From contig OY771555.1 of NCBI GenBank assembly GCA_963674785.1, positions 864,001 to 928,000 of the forward strand: a stretch of DNA of 64,000 bases, in the 5' to 3' direction. The translations under genes and the position numbers were made by a program. Positions 29,769-41,055 of the stretch are shown here, piece by piece (the first letter of the stretch is position 1; each line of letters starts with the position of its first letter). The notes under the pieces were generated by a model. The model had not been told where the DNA came from. It did no database searches and saw only the letters and a list, made by a program, of their open reading frames with translations. The DNA comes from Caldisericia bacterium. GTDB lineage: Bacteria > Caldisericota > Caldisericia > JAAYUI01.

Positions 29769-30500
29769 TTAAGGATTTGTAGAGAGATGCCTGGTGAGGC
29801 TGGGCATCTCATCCCATGTTTTGCCGTGTAGGAGTCTTCCATTTTTCTTTTTATTGAAACCACCCCATTGTTTAAAGAAGAAATCTGTGTTGCTTCGGTG
29901 GCAAGCGACTTGTATTTCATCAATCCATTCTGTTTTAATGGGTCGTGATTTATAACCTGATTCTCCCCCAACAATAGCCCAGTCAATTCCATCAAGATTG
30001 GGATTTTCTACTCTCCCTATTAATGGTTCAAATGAAATAAACTTTACTTTTGCATCTGTGTTTTTTAGATGATCTAATCTGAATTTGTAATCATCGTTTT
30101 CGATACTTACTCCCATCCAGATGTTTTTTGACCAAGGAAGTTTCTTTGATAATTTTACAAGCCTTTCAGTTCTTTTGGTGAGCACTTGGAAAATATGTTG
30201 TTTTGCAAGATTCATTGTAACAAATACTCGTAAAATATACTCAAATGGAATATCCTTGTGAAACAAATCGCTCATCGAATTTACAAAAAAGATTGAGGGC
30301 TTTTTTCTTTTTAGAGGATAATCAAGAAGCTGCTCTTGAAGGGTTACTTCAAACCCATTTCTGTAGCTTGGGTTTCCCATAGCTTTAAGTCTTTTTGCCA
30401 TTTTCTCAGCATAACAATTATCGCAGCCAGGGCTAATTTTTGTGCAACCTGTCACGGGGTTCCAGCTGTTTTCTGTCCATTCGATTGTTGTTTTCGCCAT
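29769..30500 (-). CDS. DUF5131 / phage Gp37-Gp68 family radical-SAM-like protein
   Basis: IEWT..WNPVTGCTKISPGCDNCYA, FVNSMSDLFH, LTKR, WAIVGGESG and FFKQWGG motifs. Confidence 0.92.
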   Translation of the reverse strand: MAKTTIEWTENSWNPVTGCTKISPGCDNCYAEKMAKRLKAMGNPSYRNGFEVTLQEQLLDYPLKRKKPSIFFVNSMSDLFHKDIPFEYILRVFVTMNLAKQHIFQVLTKRTERLVKLSKKLPWSKNIWMGVSIENDDYKFRLDHLKNTDAKVKFISFEPLIGRVENPNLDGIDWAIVGGESGYKSRPIKTEWIDEIQVACHRSNTDFFFKQWGGFNKKKNGRLLHGKTWDEMPSLTRHLSTNP

Positions 30501-30509
30501 TTACCCCAC

Positions 30510-31598
30510 CTATTTAAATGTGATTATCCTTTTATCACCCATTGTGTTTTTTGGTCGTTTTTCTAAAGGTTTATCAACCTCTATCTTACCATCTTTTTCC
30601 AGTAGTATAAGGGCATCCTTATAATTTCTTGGAATATACCAGGTTCCAATGTTATGCATTTCAAAAATTTCTTTTGTTGTGAGTGTTTGACCTTTAAACT
30701 TTGTCACTAAGTCATTCATCAACTCATCTAATGGTTTTGATGTTTCAAACAATTGAGGAATGTTTCTTGAGTCTGGTTTAAATTTAAAGCTTGCGACTCC
30801 TTGAGTGATTTTATGACTAAACTTTGCCATAACCTCTTTCATGATCTTGTAACCAGTTTTATTTTTTGAAATAAAGAACAAATAATGGCTTGTTTTATCT
30901 TTGTCTTTATGTTCAAAGGAAAACGGTAAAATGAAATCTGAATCTAGTTTTTCTTTTATAGATTTTTGAAAAGTTTTTATTATGGTTGATTCTCTTTCTT
31001 GAACATCCATGTTGTGTATTTCTTTACGTAAAAAGTCAGCGTTTTCCTTCCCAAAAATGCTGTCAATGTGTTCAGAAACTATGGGATTTGTGATTGCCAT
31101 ATTGATTCGGTTATAATTAAAAAATAGAATGCATTCCGATCCATATGATTCTGTTAGTAGAGTAATAGCTTCAAGCGTTAACCCTTTGTATCCCCATGGA
31201 TCTAAGAAGCTAAGTTTTGGGCATTTGTATTTGGAAATCAAATCAATAATCAGTTCTCTAGAAACTTCATTATTTTCAATAATAGGTTTATGCTTTAATG
31301 TGTTTATACCGTTAATCTCAAAAATATTCTGTTTTAGCTCCTCTACGTATGTTTGATCAACATCATTAAAAAATGAATCAAAGCAATTTCTGAAATTAGA
31401 ATCAGCAATAACTTTATTGATAACCAATAGGGGAGTAGAATTTGATCCATCATCAAACTTACCTTTACCAGAAAATAGGTCTATATAACAAAACCTTTTA
31501 TGCTTTTTCATTACGTTAGCCCAAGCATTGAAGTATTTCTCAACAATAATTGATTTGATTAAAGAGTGCGGATCTTGTTCAATGAAGAATTCATTCAT
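30510..31598 (-). CDS. tcmP: Three-Cys-motif partner protein TcmP (methyltransferase-like + wHTH)
   Basis: HSLIK..Y..AW, YIDLFSGKG..GS.STP and FLDPWGYK motifs; adjacent to DUF5131. Confidence 0.85.
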   Translation of the reverse strand: MNEFFIEQDPHSLIKSIIVEKYFNAWANVMKKHKRFCYIDLFSGKGKFDDGSNSTPLLVINKVIADSNFRNCFDSFFNDVDQTYVEELKQNIFEINGINTLKHKPIIENNEVSRELIIDLISKYKCPKLSFLDPWGYKGLTLEAITLLTESYGSECILFFNYNRINMAITNPIVSEHIDSIFGKENADFLRKEIHNMDVQERESTIIKTFQKSIKEKLDSDFILPFSFEHKDKDKTSHYLFFISKNKTGYKIMKEVMAKFSHKITQGVASFKFKPDSRNIPQLFETSKPLDELMNDLVTKFKGQTLTTKEIFEMHNIGTWYIPRNYKDALILLEKDGKIEVDKPLEKRPKNTMGDKRIITFK

Positions 31599-36078: not shown

Positions 36079-39000
36079 ATGAGTGTGCCAGAAAAAATCC
36101 ACGAGCTTGTTGAAAGATTCCATAACCATATCGATGAATACAAAAACAAAGACTACAAAGAAGCTGTTCTCTGCACAGATTTTCTAAACCCGATGTTTGA
36201 ATCCCTTGGGTGGGATGTTGACAACAAAGCAGGATATGCCGAAAGATTCAGAGATGTTGTTCAGCAATACAGTCAACATTCAGATACAGGCGGGACAAAA
36301 CAACCAGACTATCTTTTCAGAATAGGCGGAGCTCCAGCTTTTTTCCTGGAAGCAAAGAAGCCAGCGGTTGATATTTTGAATGATAAAAAACCGGCCTATC
36401 AACTCAGACGTTACGGCTGGAACAGAAAAGACATTGATGTTTCGGTGCTTTCGGACTTTGAAAATCTCTGTCTTTATGATGTTAGGATTCAACCAAAGGA
36501 AATTGACCATCCATATGCCGCAAGACTCGTGATGTATGGCTATCAGGATTACATCAAAAAATGGGATGAGATTGAAGGCTATCTAGGGCGTGAAAATGTA
36601 TCAAAAGGTTCACTTGATAGAATGCTCAAAGACTTTGGTCACATGGTCAAAGGAACAAGAGAACCAGTTGATGAATCACTTCTCAAAATGATAGAGGTCT
36701 GGAGAGAAAAGCTGGCAAAAAACATTGCCCTTCGCAATGAACTTGATATTCATCTTCTAAACAGTGCCGTACAGAAAACTATCGACAGGATATTGTTTTT
36801 AAGGATTGCCGAAGACAGAGGCATCGAACCCATCAAAACTCTTCAGGCTGCAACAAATGGAGCAAATGTATATAACCGTTTGTTTGACTTGTTCAAAAAA
36901 GCAGACATCAGATACAACTCGGGATTATTCCATTTCAGCCCCGAAAAAGGAAGACCAGAGGAATACGACAGTTTTACAGCAGGGCTGAAAATTGATGATA
37001 AGATTCTCAAAGAAATTGTCGGTAATCTCTATCCCCCAAACTATCCTTTTGATTTTTCGGTATTGCCTGTTGATATTTTGGGTCATGTCTATGAAAAATT
37101 CCTTGGTAAGGTCATCAGTCTGACAGACTCACACAAAGCAAAGGTTGAAGAAAAACCAGAGGTCAGAAAAGCAGGTGGTGTCTATTATACTCCAAAATAT
37201 ATTGTTGATTATATTGTCAGCAACACTGTTGGAAAACTTGTTGAGGACAAAAAACCGGAACAGGTTGCGAAGCTGAAGATTCTTGACCCTGCCTGTGGTT
37301 CCGGGTCATTTTTGCTTGGAGCTTACCAGTTTCTGCTCGACTGGCATCTTGACTGGTATATGGGCAATGATCCTGAAAAACACGCAAAGAAAAAGAATCC
37401 GCCAATCTTTGAAGTAAAAAACGGCTGGAAATTGACAACAGAAAAAAGAAAAGAAATCCTTCTCAACAATATCTATGGTGTAGACATCGATACCCAGGCT
37501 GTAGAGGTTGCAAAGCTCAACCTGCTTTTAAAGGTGCTTGAGCAGGAGAATACTCCGGGTCTTTTTGAGCGCACAAGAAGGGCGCTTCCCGATCTTGGAA
37601 AAAACATCAAGTGCGGGAACAGCCTCATTGAGAATGACTTTTATGATGACCATCCCGACATGATTTGTGATATTGAAGCCAGCAGGAAGATAAATGCTTT
37701 TGACTGGGACAGGGAGTTTCCGGAGATTATCAAGTGGAAAGACTCTACCCTTCCTGAACCCCCCCTACCCCCCCTGAAAGGGGGGGCTGAATTGGATAGC
37801 CCCCCTCTTCGAGGGGGGAAGGGAAGCGAAGCTTCCCAGGGGGGTTTAAGATATTTAGACAAAAACTATCTAGACCAAAGGCTTAAGCAATTCAATTTTG
37901 TATACAATGGCAAACACCTCCCATACAGGGATGACCTTAAAGAGCTAGCAAGAGACCTTCGCAAAAATCAAACAAAAGCAGAGAAAAAACTCTGGTATGA
38001 ATACCTGTCAAAATCTGAATTCAAGTTCAAAAGGCAACACCCAATTGACAACTTCATTGTCGATTTTTATTCATCAAAACTTGGTCTTGTAATCGAGATT
38101 GATGGTGACTCTCATCATGAAGATGAGCAATATAAGCTGGATGCGAAGAGAACATATATCCTTGAAAACTATGGTTTGAAGGTTATCAGGTTTAGCAATG
38201 AGCAGGTGTTGAATGAGTTTGAAGGTGTTTGTGAAGTGATTGGAAATGAAACCCTCCCTGACTCACTCCGTGAGTCTTCCCTCCCTGAAAGGGAGGGCAA
38301 TAGCCCCTTCCCTCAAGAAGGGTCGGAGAAGCCCCCCTCTTCGAGGGGGGAAGATTTGACGAAGTCAAATCAGGGGGGTTCAAAAGTTCGCCAGCTTGAA
38401 AAGGGATATGGTTTTGATGCCGTGATTGGCAATCCGCCTTATATCAGAATTCAAACTATAAGGGAGTGGAATCCGCTTTCAGTTGATTATTACAAAGAAA
38501 ACTATAAAAGTGCAGGAAAAGGCAACTATGACATCTATGTTGTGTTTGTCGAAAGAGGGTTTGAATTCCTGAACAAAGAAGGTAGATTGGGATATATTCT
38601 TCCTCATAAATTCTTCAACTCTAAGTATGGTGAATCTTTAAGAGAGGTTGTATCATTAGGTAATCATCTCAGTAATGTTGTTCATTTTGGTGATGAACAA
38701 ATATTTGATGGTGCAACAACCTATACCTGTTTGATGTTTCTTGATAAAAAGCCGGTGAAAAATCTTGACTTCACAAAAGTAACTAATATTTCAGAGTGGA
38801 GAAACAGTGGAATTGCAGAAACTGGTCTGATCAACTCAGAAAAAATTACATCATCAGAGTGGAATTTTGTTGTCGGAAAAGGTGCAAAACTTTTCGAGAA
38901 ACTTGATACCATGTCTGTGAAGTTGGGAGATGTTTCAAAGATTTTTGTAGGATTACAGACAAGTGCAGATAAAGTGTTTGTTTTGAATAACATCAAGAAG

Positions 39001-39798
39001 GTTAATGACAAAGTCGTTGGGTTCTCAAAAGCCATAGATAGTGATGTTGAGATTGAAAAAGGAATCTTAAAAAAACTACATATGGGTCAAGATATTGGTA
39101 GGTTTTCAAGTACATCATCAAAGATGATTATCTATCCATATAAGATTGAGAATGGAAAGCCAGTCTTGTATTCATCTGATGAGATAAAAGATAGGTTTCC
39201 AAAATGCTGGAAATATCTCAATAAATGCAGTCAATTCCTTAAAGATAGAGAAGGAGGTAAATGGAATATTGAGGAGTGGTGGCAATACGGAAGAAATCAA
39301 AACATTGCTGAGATGGGAACAGAAAAGATAATTCTTCAGGTTTTATCAAAGTACGGATCGTATGATTATGATCCAGATGCAAGCTGTGCAATTGTTGGCG
39401 GCGGAAATGCTGGAGGGTATGGTATATCGCTTACAAAAGGTGGAATCGGATACTTGTACCTTCTAGGATTATTGAATTCAAAGGTTTTGAATTATTTTGT
39501 TAGACAAGTATCAACAACATTTAGAGGAGGGTTCTATTCTTATGCGAAAAGATTTATAGAAAAACTCCCTATCAATACCCCCAAAGACAAAGCAAAACAT
39601 GACAAAATGGTGCTGCTCGTAGAAACCATGCTGGAGCTGAACAAACAGCTCGCGCAGTCACAGTCAGCACACGACAAAAAGCTCATCAAAAGGCGGATTG
39701 AAGATACAGACAGCAAAATTGATATGCTTGTTTATGACCTCTACGACCTGACTCCAGAGGAAATCAAAATAGTCGAAGACTCCATGAGAGGTAGCTAA
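36079..39798 (+). CDS. Type IIG (Eco57I/TaqI-C-like) restriction-modification fusion enzyme with internal DUF559 insertion
   Basis: N-terminal PDY..FLEAKK nuclease; GVYYTP, ILDPACGSGSFL and GNPPY N6-MTase motifs; TRD; C-terminal IDMLVYDLYDLTPEEI. Confidence 0.9.
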   Translation: MSVPEKIHELVERFHNHIDEYKNKDYKEAVLCTDFLNPMFESLGWDVDNKAGYAERFRDVVQQYSQHSDTGGTKQPDYLFRIGGAPAFFLEAKKPAVDILNDKKPAYQLRRYGWNRKDIDVSVLSDFENLCLYDVRIQPKEIDHPYAARLVMYGYQDYIKKWDEIEGYLGRENVSKGSLDRMLKDFGHMVKGTREPVDESLLKMIEVWREKLAKNIALRNELDIHLLNSAVQKTIDRILFLRIAEDRGIEPIKTLQAATNGANVYNRLFDLFKKADIRYNSGLFHFSPEKGRPEEYDSFTAGLKIDDKILKEIVGNLYPPNYPFDFSVLPVDILGHVYEKFLGKVISLTDSHKAKVEEKPEVRKAGGVYYTPKYIVDYIVSNTVGKLVEDKKPEQVAKLKILDPACGSGSFLLGAYQFLLDWHLDWYMGNDPEKHAKKKNPPIFEVKNGWKLTTEKRKEILLNNIYGVDIDTQAVEVAKLNLLLKVLEQENTPGLFERTRRALPDLGKNIKCGNSLIENDFYDDHPDMICDIEASRKINAFDWDREFPEIIKWKDSTLPEPPLPPLKGGAELDSPPLRGGKGSEASQGGLRYLDKNYLDQRLKQFNFVYNGKHLPYRDDLKELARDLRKNQTKAEKKLWYEYLSKSEFKFKRQHPIDNFIVDFYSSKLGLVIEIDGDSHHEDEQYKLDAKRTYILENYGLKVIRFSNEQVLNEFEGVCEVIGNETLPDSLRESSLPEREGNSPFPQEGSEKPPSSRGEDLTKSNQGGSKVRQLEKGYGFDAVIGNPPYIRIQTIREWNPLSVDYYKENYKSAGKGNYDIYVVFVERGFEFLNKEGRLGYILPHKFFNSKYGESLREVVSLGNHLSNVVHFGDEQIFDGATTYTCLMFLDKKPVKNLDFTKVTNISEWRNSGIAETGLINSEKITSSEWNFVVGKGAKLFEKLDTMSVKLGDVSKIFVGLQTSADKVFVLNNIKKVNDKVVGFSKAIDSDVEIEKGILKKLHMGQDIGRFSSTSSKMIIYPYKIENGKPVLYSSDEIKDRFPKCWKYLNKCSQFLKDREGGKWNIEEWWQYGRNQNIAEMGTEKIILQVLSKYGSYDYDPDASCAIVGGGNAGGYGISLTKGGIGYLYLLGLLNSKVLNYFVRQVSTTFRGGFYSYAKRFIEKLPINTPKDKAKHDKMVLLVETMLELNKQLAQSQSAHDKKLIKRRIEDTDSKIDMLVYDLYDLTPEEIKIVEDSMRGS
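37747..38385 (+). mobile_element. In-frame insertion: DUF559 (Vsr-like) nuclease flanked by double-hairpin repeats
   Basis: ARDLRKNQTKAEKKLW..FKRQHPIDNFIVDFY..IEIDGDSH..D.KRT..LE..G.KVIRFSN at ~37915-38241; GC-rich hairpin repeats at 37757-37846 and 38250-38380. Confidence 0.75.
39730..39782 (+). repeat. 53-bp direct repeat, copy 1 (3' end of RM gene)
   Basis: Identical to 40665-40717: GTTTATGACCTCTACGACCTGACTCCAGAGGAAATCAAAATAGTCGAAGACTC. Confidence 0.95.
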
Positions 39799-40499
39799 TG
39801 GTACCTCATAGCAAGCACTATATTTACACTGATGAGAGCTATATCAAAGATGGAAGATATATGCTGATTGGTGGCTTGTGGATTGCAAAAGAAAATATCA
39901 TAGAAACAAAGACTTTTGTTGATGTATTCAAAACTGAAAACAGTATGACAAATGAGTTGAAATGGACAAAGGTTTCAAATGGCAGAATAATTGAATACAA
40001 GAGATTTGTTGATATTTTTTTCCAGTCAAAGATGAAATTCAATTGTATTGTTGTTGATAAACACATTGTTGATCACACAACCTTTAATGATGGTGACAAA
40101 GAACTGGGATTCTATAAGTTTTACTATCAACTGATATCGAGAAACTGTGCTTTTAATTGTCATTATAACCTATACCTTGATCAAATGAACAATAAAAAGA
40201 AATCTAGATACTCTGAGTTGAAAGAAAGACTAAACAGATACTTGGTTTCTCAGAACTCAAAATGCATACATATCGAACCTGTTGACTCGAAAAAGGAATC
40301 GATGATTCAGCTTGTGGATGTTTTGTTGGGTGCTGTTGGCTATTCGTGGAACTTGAATAATTCTAGCCCTGCAAAACTTAGATTGATTGAGTATATTCAG
40401 TCAAAACTAGGGAGAAGACTTACTCACCCAACATCATTACACGAAAACAAGTTTAATATTTGGAATTTTAGGCTAAGAAAAACGCGTCCTGGTTCCTAG
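39798..40499 (+). CDS. DUF3800 domain protein
   Basis: N-terminal YTDES, ELKW, and VDSK..IQLVD (QxxD); TAATG translational coupling to the RM gene. Confidence 0.85.
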   Translation: MVPHSKHYIYTDESYIKDGRYMLIGGLWIAKENIIETKTFVDVFKTENSMTNELKWTKVSNGRIIEYKRFVDIFFQSKMKFNCIVVDKHIVDHTTFNDGDKELGFYKFYYQLISRNCAFNCHYNLYLDQMNNKKKSRYSELKERLNRYLVSQNSKCIHIEPVDSKKESMIQLVDVLLGAVGYSWNLNNSSPAKLRLIEYIQSKLGRRLTHPTSLHENKFNIWNFRLRKTRPGS

Positions 40500-40560
40500 C
40501 TCCAACCCTTATGGGCGGCTAATCCTACGCTTGGTAGGGGTTTCGGTGACCAGTGACGCT
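40478..40560 (-). ncRNA. Structured ~85-nt RNA convergent on the DUF3800 gene (DUF3800-associated RNA motif candidate)
   Basis: Minus-strand TTGACA (40595-40590)-18-TAATAT (40571-40566) promoter; GCGUC-A-CUGGU/ACCAG-GACGC closing stem, two internal hairpins, 3' U-tract. Confidence 0.65.
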
Positions 40561-40602
40561 TACCTATATTATCGTACAAAAACTGATTTTGTCAACCACT
40601 TC

Positions 40603-40727
40603 ATGAAAAAGAAGGGTCTTATCAAAAGACAGATAGAAAACACCGACAAAAAATTGATGAGCTGGTTTATGACCTCTACGACCTGACTCCAGAGGAAATC
40701 AAAATAGTCGAAGACTCAATGAAATAA
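40603..40727 (+). pseudogene. Orphan, frameshifted copy of the RM gene C-terminus
   Basis: MKKKGLIKRQIENTDKK / IDELVYDLYDLTPEEIKIVEDSMK*, with a 1-nt loss in an A-run; contains repeat copy 2 (40665-40717). Confidence 0.75.
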
Positions 40728-40774
40728 CCCTCCCTGGCATCTCCGATGCCTTCCCTCCCTGAAAGGGAGGGCAA
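40726..40774 (+). repeat. Solo copy of the DUF559-flanking double-hairpin repeat
   Basis: AACCCTCCCTG-GCATC-TCC-GATGC-CTTCCCTCCCTGAAAGGGAGGGCAA, compare 38250-38300. Confidence 0.85.
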
Positions 40775-40782
40775 AACTCCTT

Positions 40783-40967
40783 CGTTATGCCGGGCTCCGA
40801 TTGGGCATCCTACCTTTTCGTCATTCCGGGCTTGACCCGGAATCCAGGGTTAGGCTTGGTAAAGTGATAATAAAATGAGTAATTTCTAGTATCAGTAAAG
40901 GTGATTTCTCCAAATCAAATAAATGTGATTTTCTGTGTCCTGGATTCCCGCCTGCGCGGGAATGTCG
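40783..40967. repeat. Cluster of CGTC-tagged/dRS3-like palindromic repeats
   Basis: CGTCATTCCGGGCTTGACCCGGAATCCAGG (40819-40848); inverted copy with ATTCCC-N8-GGGAAT (40944-40963); degenerate copy at 40783-40810. Confidence 0.8.
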
Positions 40968-41055
40968 TTTGGGGATGTTGGGAACGATATGGTTTGACAC
41001 TACTCCGGATAAGATATTCTTTTAATTTATCCATGTGTACGTATACTGAAATTTA

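Follow-up and report, generated by a model that had tools for sequence, protein, structure and literature searches.

A DUF559 nuclease between hairpin-plus-mirror-tail repeats, read in frame within a restriction-modification gene of a Caldisericia bacterium: a candidate selfish cassette

How does a small nuclease domain, bounded on both sides by hairpin-forming repeats, come to be read in frame in the middle of a DNA methyltransferase? The question is raised by a stretch of 64,000 nucleotides from a Caldisericia bacterium (assembly GCA_963674785.1, contig OY771555.1, positions 864,001 to 928,000), hereafter the window, in which a type IIG restriction-modification (RM) gene carries a DUF559 domain between inverted doublets of a structured repeat. 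We propose that the insert is a selfish cassette that rides unspliced in loops of RM proteins and encodes a nuclease which likely nicks the cassette's own repeats in their structured, single-stranded form, much as Ssn acts on NTS; we judge this proposal to be slightly better than an even bet. It builds on the anatomy of the insert, on a linkage between gene and repeats that extends across phyla, on a series of alleles at one loop, on a change of address of the cassette and on purifying selection acting on the nuclease. The features concerned are the following, in window coordinates.

36079..39798, + strand: host gene, type IIG restriction enzyme-methyltransferase of 1239 amino acids (open reading frame open throughout, Pfam, PADLOC)
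37285..37305, + strand: motif DPACGSG, which binds S-adenosylmethionine, intact, 5′ of the insert, amino acid 403 (sequence)
37745..38388, + strand: interval containing the insert, net 636 bp or 212 codons, ends within about 3 codons either way
37747..37756, + strand: putative start remnant of a further repeat unit (compared with C1:298595-298620 of the same genome and with L033, a same-genus ortholog of the host gene)
37757..37788, - strand: repeat unit L1, short-linker form, with three 7-base C/G runs (pattern and detector)
37798..37847, + strand: repeat unit L2, hairpin-linker form, tail toward the nuclease (fold, alignment)
37852..38247, + strand: DUF559 Vsr-like domain with an N-terminal extension (Pfam part 37936-38241; Pfam, structure relatives)
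38250..38299, - strand: repeat unit R1, hairpin-linker form, inverted to L2 (detector; weak whalefall-1 match)
38305..38322, no strand assigned: degenerate fifth hairpin between R1 and R2 (read from the sequence, fold)
38330..38381, + strand: repeat unit R2, hairpin-linker form, first 24 bases the same as in L2
38431..38442, + strand: catalytic motif NPPY, intact, amino acid 785, 14 codons past the insert (sequence)

The host protein combines an HSDR_N nuclease, an N6-adenine methyltransferase (MTase) and a TaqI_C-type specificity domain in one chain (Pfam), and matches REase_MTase_IIG of PADLOC with an E value of 5e-255. As the initial annotation had claimed, the insertion is in frame, the gene being open through the whole insert without any stop, and DUF559, at amino acids 620-721, interrupts the Eco57I/N6-MTase domain. 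The spacing from the motif FDW to NPPY is 243 amino acids in this protein and 20 in 83 of the 119 scorable homologs (120 were collected, one of them without the motif). Since it is 31 amino acids in the closest empty homologs, the net insert amounts to 212 codons, slightly fewer than the 220 or so first estimated. One empty homolog, P0002, is 72% identical to the host across the N-terminal alignment. The suggested alignment to insertion-free homologs recovered both empty and gene-less alleles of the site. A 10-bp inverted pair bounds 37755-38382, as read from the sequence, the DNA of the empty alleles being too diverged to fix a duplication.

Two explanations of the insert were rejected. A sequencing artefact is discarded because identical short-read contigs span both junctions without differences. 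An intein is discarded because neither a Hint domain nor terminal His-Asn residues nor any other intein feature was found by Pfam or in the sequence, in keeping with the non-splicing ride within a host protein that had been suggested; no Rfam intron matches the insert region either. In an alignment-based structure model, DUF559 is a confidently folded separate domain (predicted local distance difference test, pLDDT, 89-98) on disordered linkers. The MTase half after the insert is folded in this model, while the half before it is not and the two are not joined (predicted template modelling score 0.39), so that the model is uninformative on the integrity of the MTase. A single-sequence AlphaFold model was useless (pLDDT 33).

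The repeats on both sides of the nuclease follow one design: a pyrimidine/purine (C/G) hairpin, a linker that is either 1-4 nt long or a covarying hairpin, and a G-rich tail in mirror image. Scored by the rules of an antiparallel triplex (G with G, A with A or T), the tails of 288 units mirror the purine arm with a score of 0.915, versus 0.627 for the direct comparison and at most 0.864 with shuffled tails. The exact repeat pattern has four matches in the window, all within the insert, and none in 100 shuffles, and the fold z-scores of the two flanks range from -4.3 to -5.0. L2 and R2 lie where they had been placed at first sight and share 24 identical bases; their second stems differ in sequence while pairing completely, and each unit is preceded by a reverse-oriented relative (L1 and R1), as had also been read from the letters. 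In an alignment of eight units, both stems show compensatory changes and 91 of 91 cells are paired, a figure inflated by related sequences; without any alignment, a stem of at least 4 is found in 54% of 69 distinct long linkers versus 14% of shuffled ones. The linkers of L2, R1 and R2 are hairpins of 16-22 nt, and those of L1 and of most short-linker units elsewhere fall within 1-6 nt. Because R2, at the right end, is oriented like the inner left unit L2, the cassette is best described as an accreted array and not as a clean REPIN pair. Thus, of the REPIN-like layout initially proposed, the inverted doublets stand but the REP design does not, the units being of the hairpin-plus-mirror-tail type known from BoxC and other triplex repeats.

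The nuclease domain itself is complete, as announced, with a Pfam match that covers positions 3-104 of the 109 of the DUF559 model (E 1e-29). Its nearest solved structures are 3HRL (E 9e-27) and I-Bth0305I (3R3P; E 1e-5). The characteristic DUF559 residues are E635, D662, E673, D675, H679 and D688 in the window copy, and five of them (E635, D662, D675, H679 and D688), aligned to 3R3P, occupy Vsr-like active-site positions that are invariant in 11 of 11 sequences; these five EDxHD positions were taken from the description of that family in PMC3239194. The motif E-x-D-G-x-x-H is retained in 84 of 87 DUF559 fusions. The ratio of nonsynonymous to synonymous substitution rates is 0.11-0.15 against three sister copies (the remaining pairs are saturated), and 15 of the 21 listed changes in related contigs fall at third codon positions by hand count: the domain is under purifying selection. 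As no start codon for DUF559 follows the left repeats, the only candidate being one TTG within the left doublet, the domain is presumably made only as part of the fusion.

Is the association of this nuclease with these repeats peculiar to one locus? Among the 80 best-matching loci of a genome scan, mostly cyanobacterial, 71 have 300 bp on both sides, and a detector that had been tuned solely on the window genome found a unit within 300 bp of the DUF559 gene in 65 of these 71 and on both sides in 41, as compared with 18 of 1195 distal windows. The enrichment of the repeats beside DUF559 genes across taxa, proposed as a check of the initial annotation, is thus borne out. The nearest units are inverted and face inward, 58 of 63 on the left being in the plus and 52 of 56 on the right in the minus orientation. 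DUF559 genes were also reported as enriched among predicted inversion targets (PMC9881135), which fits such inverted flanks. Among distant viral DUF559 homologs, which account for most of the viral contigs, only 4 of 73 have a unit. At the level of whole genomes, DUF559 is found in 15 of 18 repeat-rich cyanobacteria versus 19 of 62 others (80 genomes of the phylum, centre genome excluded), and in 13 of 16 versus 6 of 22 when genomes of at least 4 Mb are compared, these counts including kin that are not independent. Finally, among 41 genomes of the class to which the window belongs, the repeat pattern occurs in 7 of 11 within the family and in 1 of 30 outside it, and strong DUF559 matches are limited to the same family. 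Three family members with another DUF559 clade score zero on the pattern; the hairpins that flank their genes are of other variants.

The loop that hosts the insert is a landing site. Peptides derived from the repeats lie at this loop in 13 of 112 scorable homologs, versus 3 matches across the rest of the proteins; the set was picked on a loop-free region, 8 of the 120 homologs were dropped and the window protein is one of the 13. The 12 closest proteins form an allele series with four empty loops, one with 9 extra residues and seven with repeat-derived inserts that belong to at least three repeat families, two of these seven proteins being truncated there. The ortholog L033 has L1, L2 and R2 without the nuclease gene. 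In five further homologs (P0004-P0006, P0112 and P0157) DUF559 occupies the same loop and is placed elsewhere in the DUF559 tree, while the window domain groups (SH-aLRT 96) with four copies carried by type ISP RM genes, where they occupy two further sites; the tree was built by a quick method from 84 rows, which comprise 57 of the 87 fusions, 4 fusions at the same loop and 23 loci. Judged by sequence comparison, these placements show that the cassette changes address and that the loop has been occupied repeatedly.

In the 2.23-Mb genome the detector finds 28 units, and none in two shuffled genomes; 9 are in frame and 19 lie outside long frames, and all are confined to 298-925 kb (C1:298000-925000), the third of the chromosome around the GC-skew minimum at 694 kb. 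The nine in-frame units fall in two of the three MTase-like frames among the 939 long frames of the genome. One of the two is the host gene; the other is a type ISP-like RM gene (L001, G000:C1:296810-300544) with two separate in-frame inserts, one holding the second DUF559 of the genome, of another clade, between BoxC-type units, and the other a gene-less array that is a near copy of the left doublet of the window. In five relatives, a unit lies in a frame of at least 350 codons in 8 of the 32 stretches around matches (five type ISP RM genes, two RHS genes and one gene with no Pfam match); in same-genus genomes, the RHS-type genes with in-frame repeats are L219 and L227 (Pfam RHS), L206 and L218. 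Of the long proteins that contain this DUF559 clade, 64 of 87 are RM or DNA-methyltransferase proteins, with hosts assigned by hand from Pfam accessions and a length filter of 681-2169 amino acids that favours large RM proteins. The other hosts include RecQ, iPGM, RecG, MetH, RecJ and Mfd. Repeat peptides flank DUF559 in 58 of the 87, versus 22 of 586 control windows.

Length changes in the C/G runs of the repeats break the frame in L033 and in one low-depth contig. Six of the 15 seven-base C/G runs of the genome sit in the two RM inserts, three of them at 37759-37786, where they could make phase variation possible. L033 has a run one base shorter, and in the low-depth contig, which comes from another study, the run at 37768 is longer by two C, an observation too weak on its own. 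Altogether, frames are broken at the repeats in L033, L208, L008 and P0215, which fits a parasite better than a beneficial domain; these breaks may also be slippage or assembly errors in C/G runs.

How does this system compare with those already described? The closest parallel for the repeats is the BoxC/PIT/TM class of intrastrand triplex repeats, known since the 1990s with function and mover lacking (PMC4666352). As described by Holder et al. (2015), BoxC/TM elements share the C-rich/G-rich hairpin that leads into a mirror purine tail, the inverted doublets, an origin-side clustering (seen in E. coli K-12) and variability among strains. Those of E. coli are intergenic with loops of 1-6 nt (ITxF), whereas the units of the window often have a hairpin linker, are translated and flank DUF559. 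The main text of that paper reports no mobility gene and does not contain the word 'nuclease'; triplex formation in vitro was shown for TMECO (PMC4666352). The Rfam family whalefall-1 (RF01762; PMC2864571) has the same build, with a G/C hairpin, a variable second hairpin and a G-rich tail, and is described there as a non-coding RNA. No Rfam family matches the insert region at cut-off, and whalefall-1 has no match at cut-off in 18 related loci; R1 gives the best score, 23.3 bits for a cut-off of 37. A whalefall-1 pattern has four matches, of which two look true, and both are inverted doublets (L209:1050-1400 and L210:1050-1400), with no DUF559 within 1.2 kb of either. Such doublets suggest that what Rfam lists as an 'RNA' is a DNA repeat built in the same way.

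For the partnership between enzyme and repeat, the closest parallel is Ssn/NTS, in which a GIY-YIG nuclease gene is linked to a hairpin repeat on one side in 71% of cases and on both in 42% (PMC11893778). Both systems pair a small, single-domain nuclease that is not of the HUH kind with a hairpin repeat spread over the genome, copies of which flank its gene, and the linkage is of a similar level (65/71 and 41/71 for DUF559, best matches only). The idea of a non-HUH nuclease with its own hairpin repeats, put forward in the initial annotation, had already been published for this other fold. DUF559 differs from Ssn by its Vsr-like fold, by its hairpin-plus-mirror-tail repeat and by its in-frame life inside host proteins; neither 'Vsr' nor 'DUF559' occurs in the main text on Ssn/NTS (Chenal et al. 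2025, PMC11893778). The likeness with REP/REPIN-RAYT lies in inverted hairpin doublets beside a dedicated enzyme gene and in many gene-less copies (as summarised in PMC3116915 and PMC3733652), and the differences in the absence of an HUH/Y1 enzyme and of a GTAG/CGTC tag and in tens instead of hundreds of copies. A classical REP-RAYT system is rejected, since no match to PF01797 (the Y1/HUH transposase, RAYT) is found in the 92% complete genome, as expected of the non-HUH system first proposed, since the flanked gene is DUF559 and since no GTAG or CGTC tag stands at the foot of the palindromes in the unit alignment, where the preceding dinucleotides vary (AG, TT, AA, GT). The system would work like REP-RAYT and Ssn-NTS, with an enzyme that is neither of the two by which they are defined.

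Other precedents are partial. The ShiLan insert is likewise non-spliced, nuclease-bearing and read through in frame in a DNA methyltransferase, but its HNH nuclease is in another frame, it is known from one site, homing was proposed for it and its description in PMC11855218 does not mention palindromes. Rickettsia palindromic elements also lie in frame in protein genes but are gene-less, with no partner enzyme named in the summary of PMC10969869. With the EDxHD enzyme I-Bth0305I and with Vsr the domain shares its catalytic fold and the five active-site positions (PMC3239194); unlike I-Bth0305I, the cassette has no intron or intein context and no NUMOD domain. In the accessible literature, subscription papers being outside our scope, we found no description of DUF559 pairing with these repeats.

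From these elements the following course of events can be proposed. When DNA is transiently single-stranded, each unit would fold as a hairpin, and the mirror tail would bind its purine arm to form an intrastrand triplex. DUF559 would bind this triplex-like fold and nick nearby, as SsnA does at NTS, and host repair or recombination would then copy units. The copies, some with the gene and some lacking it, would land at new sites or next to units already present, so that doublets and arrays would build up. Within genes, only in-frame copies in tolerant surface loops would persist, leaving the nuclease as an unspliced domain of the host protein. RM genes may be preferred hosts, being dispensable and variable and being exchanged by way of their conserved flanks. 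A more far-reaching version, which we regard as tentative and rather doubtful, would make DUF559 the dedicated enzyme of a BoxC/triplex superfamily that includes whalefall-1, reading single-stranded triplex and spreading both gene-bearing and gene-less units, active as an unspliced RM domain, with C7/G7 runs that make RM genes phase-variable.

The genome also holds a second repeat family, whose features bear on this proposal.

40726..40773, - strand of the window: solo intergenic copy of the main repeat, followed by a CGTC/Ssn-type palindrome pair at about 40820-40975 (detector)
G000:C1:302692-302910, 787274-787492 and 732751-732957: three small GIY-YIG genes (L201-L203), flanked by inverted CGTC-type palindromes

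The three genes look like Ssn/NTS members, and the third (C1:732751-732957), frameshifted close to its end, has a composite repeat on either side. Near the solo copy, a DUF3800 gene (39798-40499) overlaps the stop of the RM gene and matches PDC-M04A of PADLOC (E 4e-58); 3′ of it, a short GC-richer stretch at about 40480-40570 may be a non-coding RNA. Positions 40617-40720, directly before the solo repeat, are a second copy of the final part of the RM gene (about 39690-39790), possibly left behind when the DUF3800 gene was inserted. Farther away, at 29769-31598 on the minus strand, a DUF5131 gene adjoins a GMT-wHTH gene.

Several points weigh against the selfish cassette. For the insert we found neither a target-site duplication nor clean ends, nor any empty allele that is nearly identical, the empty-allele DNA being too diverged for a duplication to be fixed at base resolution, and contigs from the sequencing runs show neither such an allele nor an excision joint. 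The 80 best-match loci are mostly cyanobacterial, their kin not being independent, and 6 of the 71 close loci have no detected unit, several having other variants by eye. Three repeat-rich cyanobacterial genomes, one with 261 matches, have no DUF559 match. The DUF559 gene ycjD of E. coli K-12 has a single degenerate BoxC-like unit at its 3′ end (L200:485-525). Caulobacter VsrA, the one DUF559 protein for which we found in vivo data, was read as a mismatch-repair nickase (PMC12907096). Finally, 16 of the 19 intergenic units have the short motif of the second family no more than 100 bp away, for an expected 6%, and so may travel with the family that flanks the GIY-YIG genes.

The last point also speaks for an alternative in which DUF559 recognises the repeats without moving them. 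It would act like a domesticated SsnA, cutting incoming or exposed single-stranded DNA and tuning recombination, while the repeats spread through host recombination or neighbouring Ssn-type elements. SsnA is reported to cut near its own repeats and to modulate transformation, its mobility being a hypothesis (PMC11893778), and the GIY-YIG gene between two composite repeats and the repeat-rich genomes that have no DUF559 match also agree with such a role. However, the four in-frame units checked in two RM genes lie 129-2821 bp from the motif of the second family, none within 100 bp, and gene-plus-repeat cassettes of one clade occur at different sites in different genes. We consider this alternative unlikely, though it is the rival that survives best.

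Alternatively, the fusion may have been selected as an accessory RM nuclease providing a second cut, nicking or a wider anti-phage action, the repeats being a recombination handle. The share of RM or DNA-methyltransferase hosts, the confinement of in-frame units to MTase-like frames and purifying selection on a domain without its own start codon agree with this. Yet the host share is biased by the length filter, the domain lies at unrelated sites, also in RecQ, RecG, iPGM, MetH and others, and gene-less repeats, which add no nuclease, prefer the RM loop equally. The frame breaks at the repeats in relatives further weaken the notion, already voiced in the initial annotation, of a useful second nuclease, and we find this explanation distinctly improbable. 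Still harder to sustain is a Vsr-type T:G mismatch-repair nickase with hitch-hiking repeats that gather near its gene. The Vsr-like fold and residues would suit it, and Caulobacter VsrA causes an SOS response and DNA damage when the cytosine methyltransferase is missing (PMC12907096), but no C5 cytosine methyltransferase (PF00145) is found in the 92% complete genome, the host enzyme is predicted by family to make N6-methyladenine, and the tight inverted flanking and the insertion into loops would be left unexplained. Finally, a site-specific EDxHD homing endonuclease that would be copied into the empty RM allele after cutting it, as proposed for the ShiLan insert, has in its favour the similarity to I-Bth0305I and a patchy presence at one loop, but is hardly credible given that Pfam finds no N-terminal NUMOD-type DNA-binding domain in the window protein, that sister domains lie in unrelated sequences of other genes, that most close homologs are free-standing between repeats and that gene-less copies occupy the same loop.

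The selfish cassette is the reading we retain. If true, it would add a third fold to the nucleases that work with repeats in bacteria, next to RAYT and Ssn. An orphan family of repeats, familiar for decades, would thereby gain the partner it lacked, and the enzyme might serve as a new tool for single-strand DNA of a given structure. Under the more far-reaching version, DUF559 would moreover form a third class of enzymes underlying the palindromic repeats of bacteria and would be a nuclease able to recognise triplex DNA. With a candidate enzyme of about 130 residues, a likely substrate and natural gene-bearing and gene-less alleles, the question can be put to the test. Common annotations of 'very-short-patch-repair endonuclease / methylase' fusions would be explained as insertions. 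More generally, the cassette would provide a route to domain gain without splicing, in a protein family in which one MTase loop is able to accept 200 residues.

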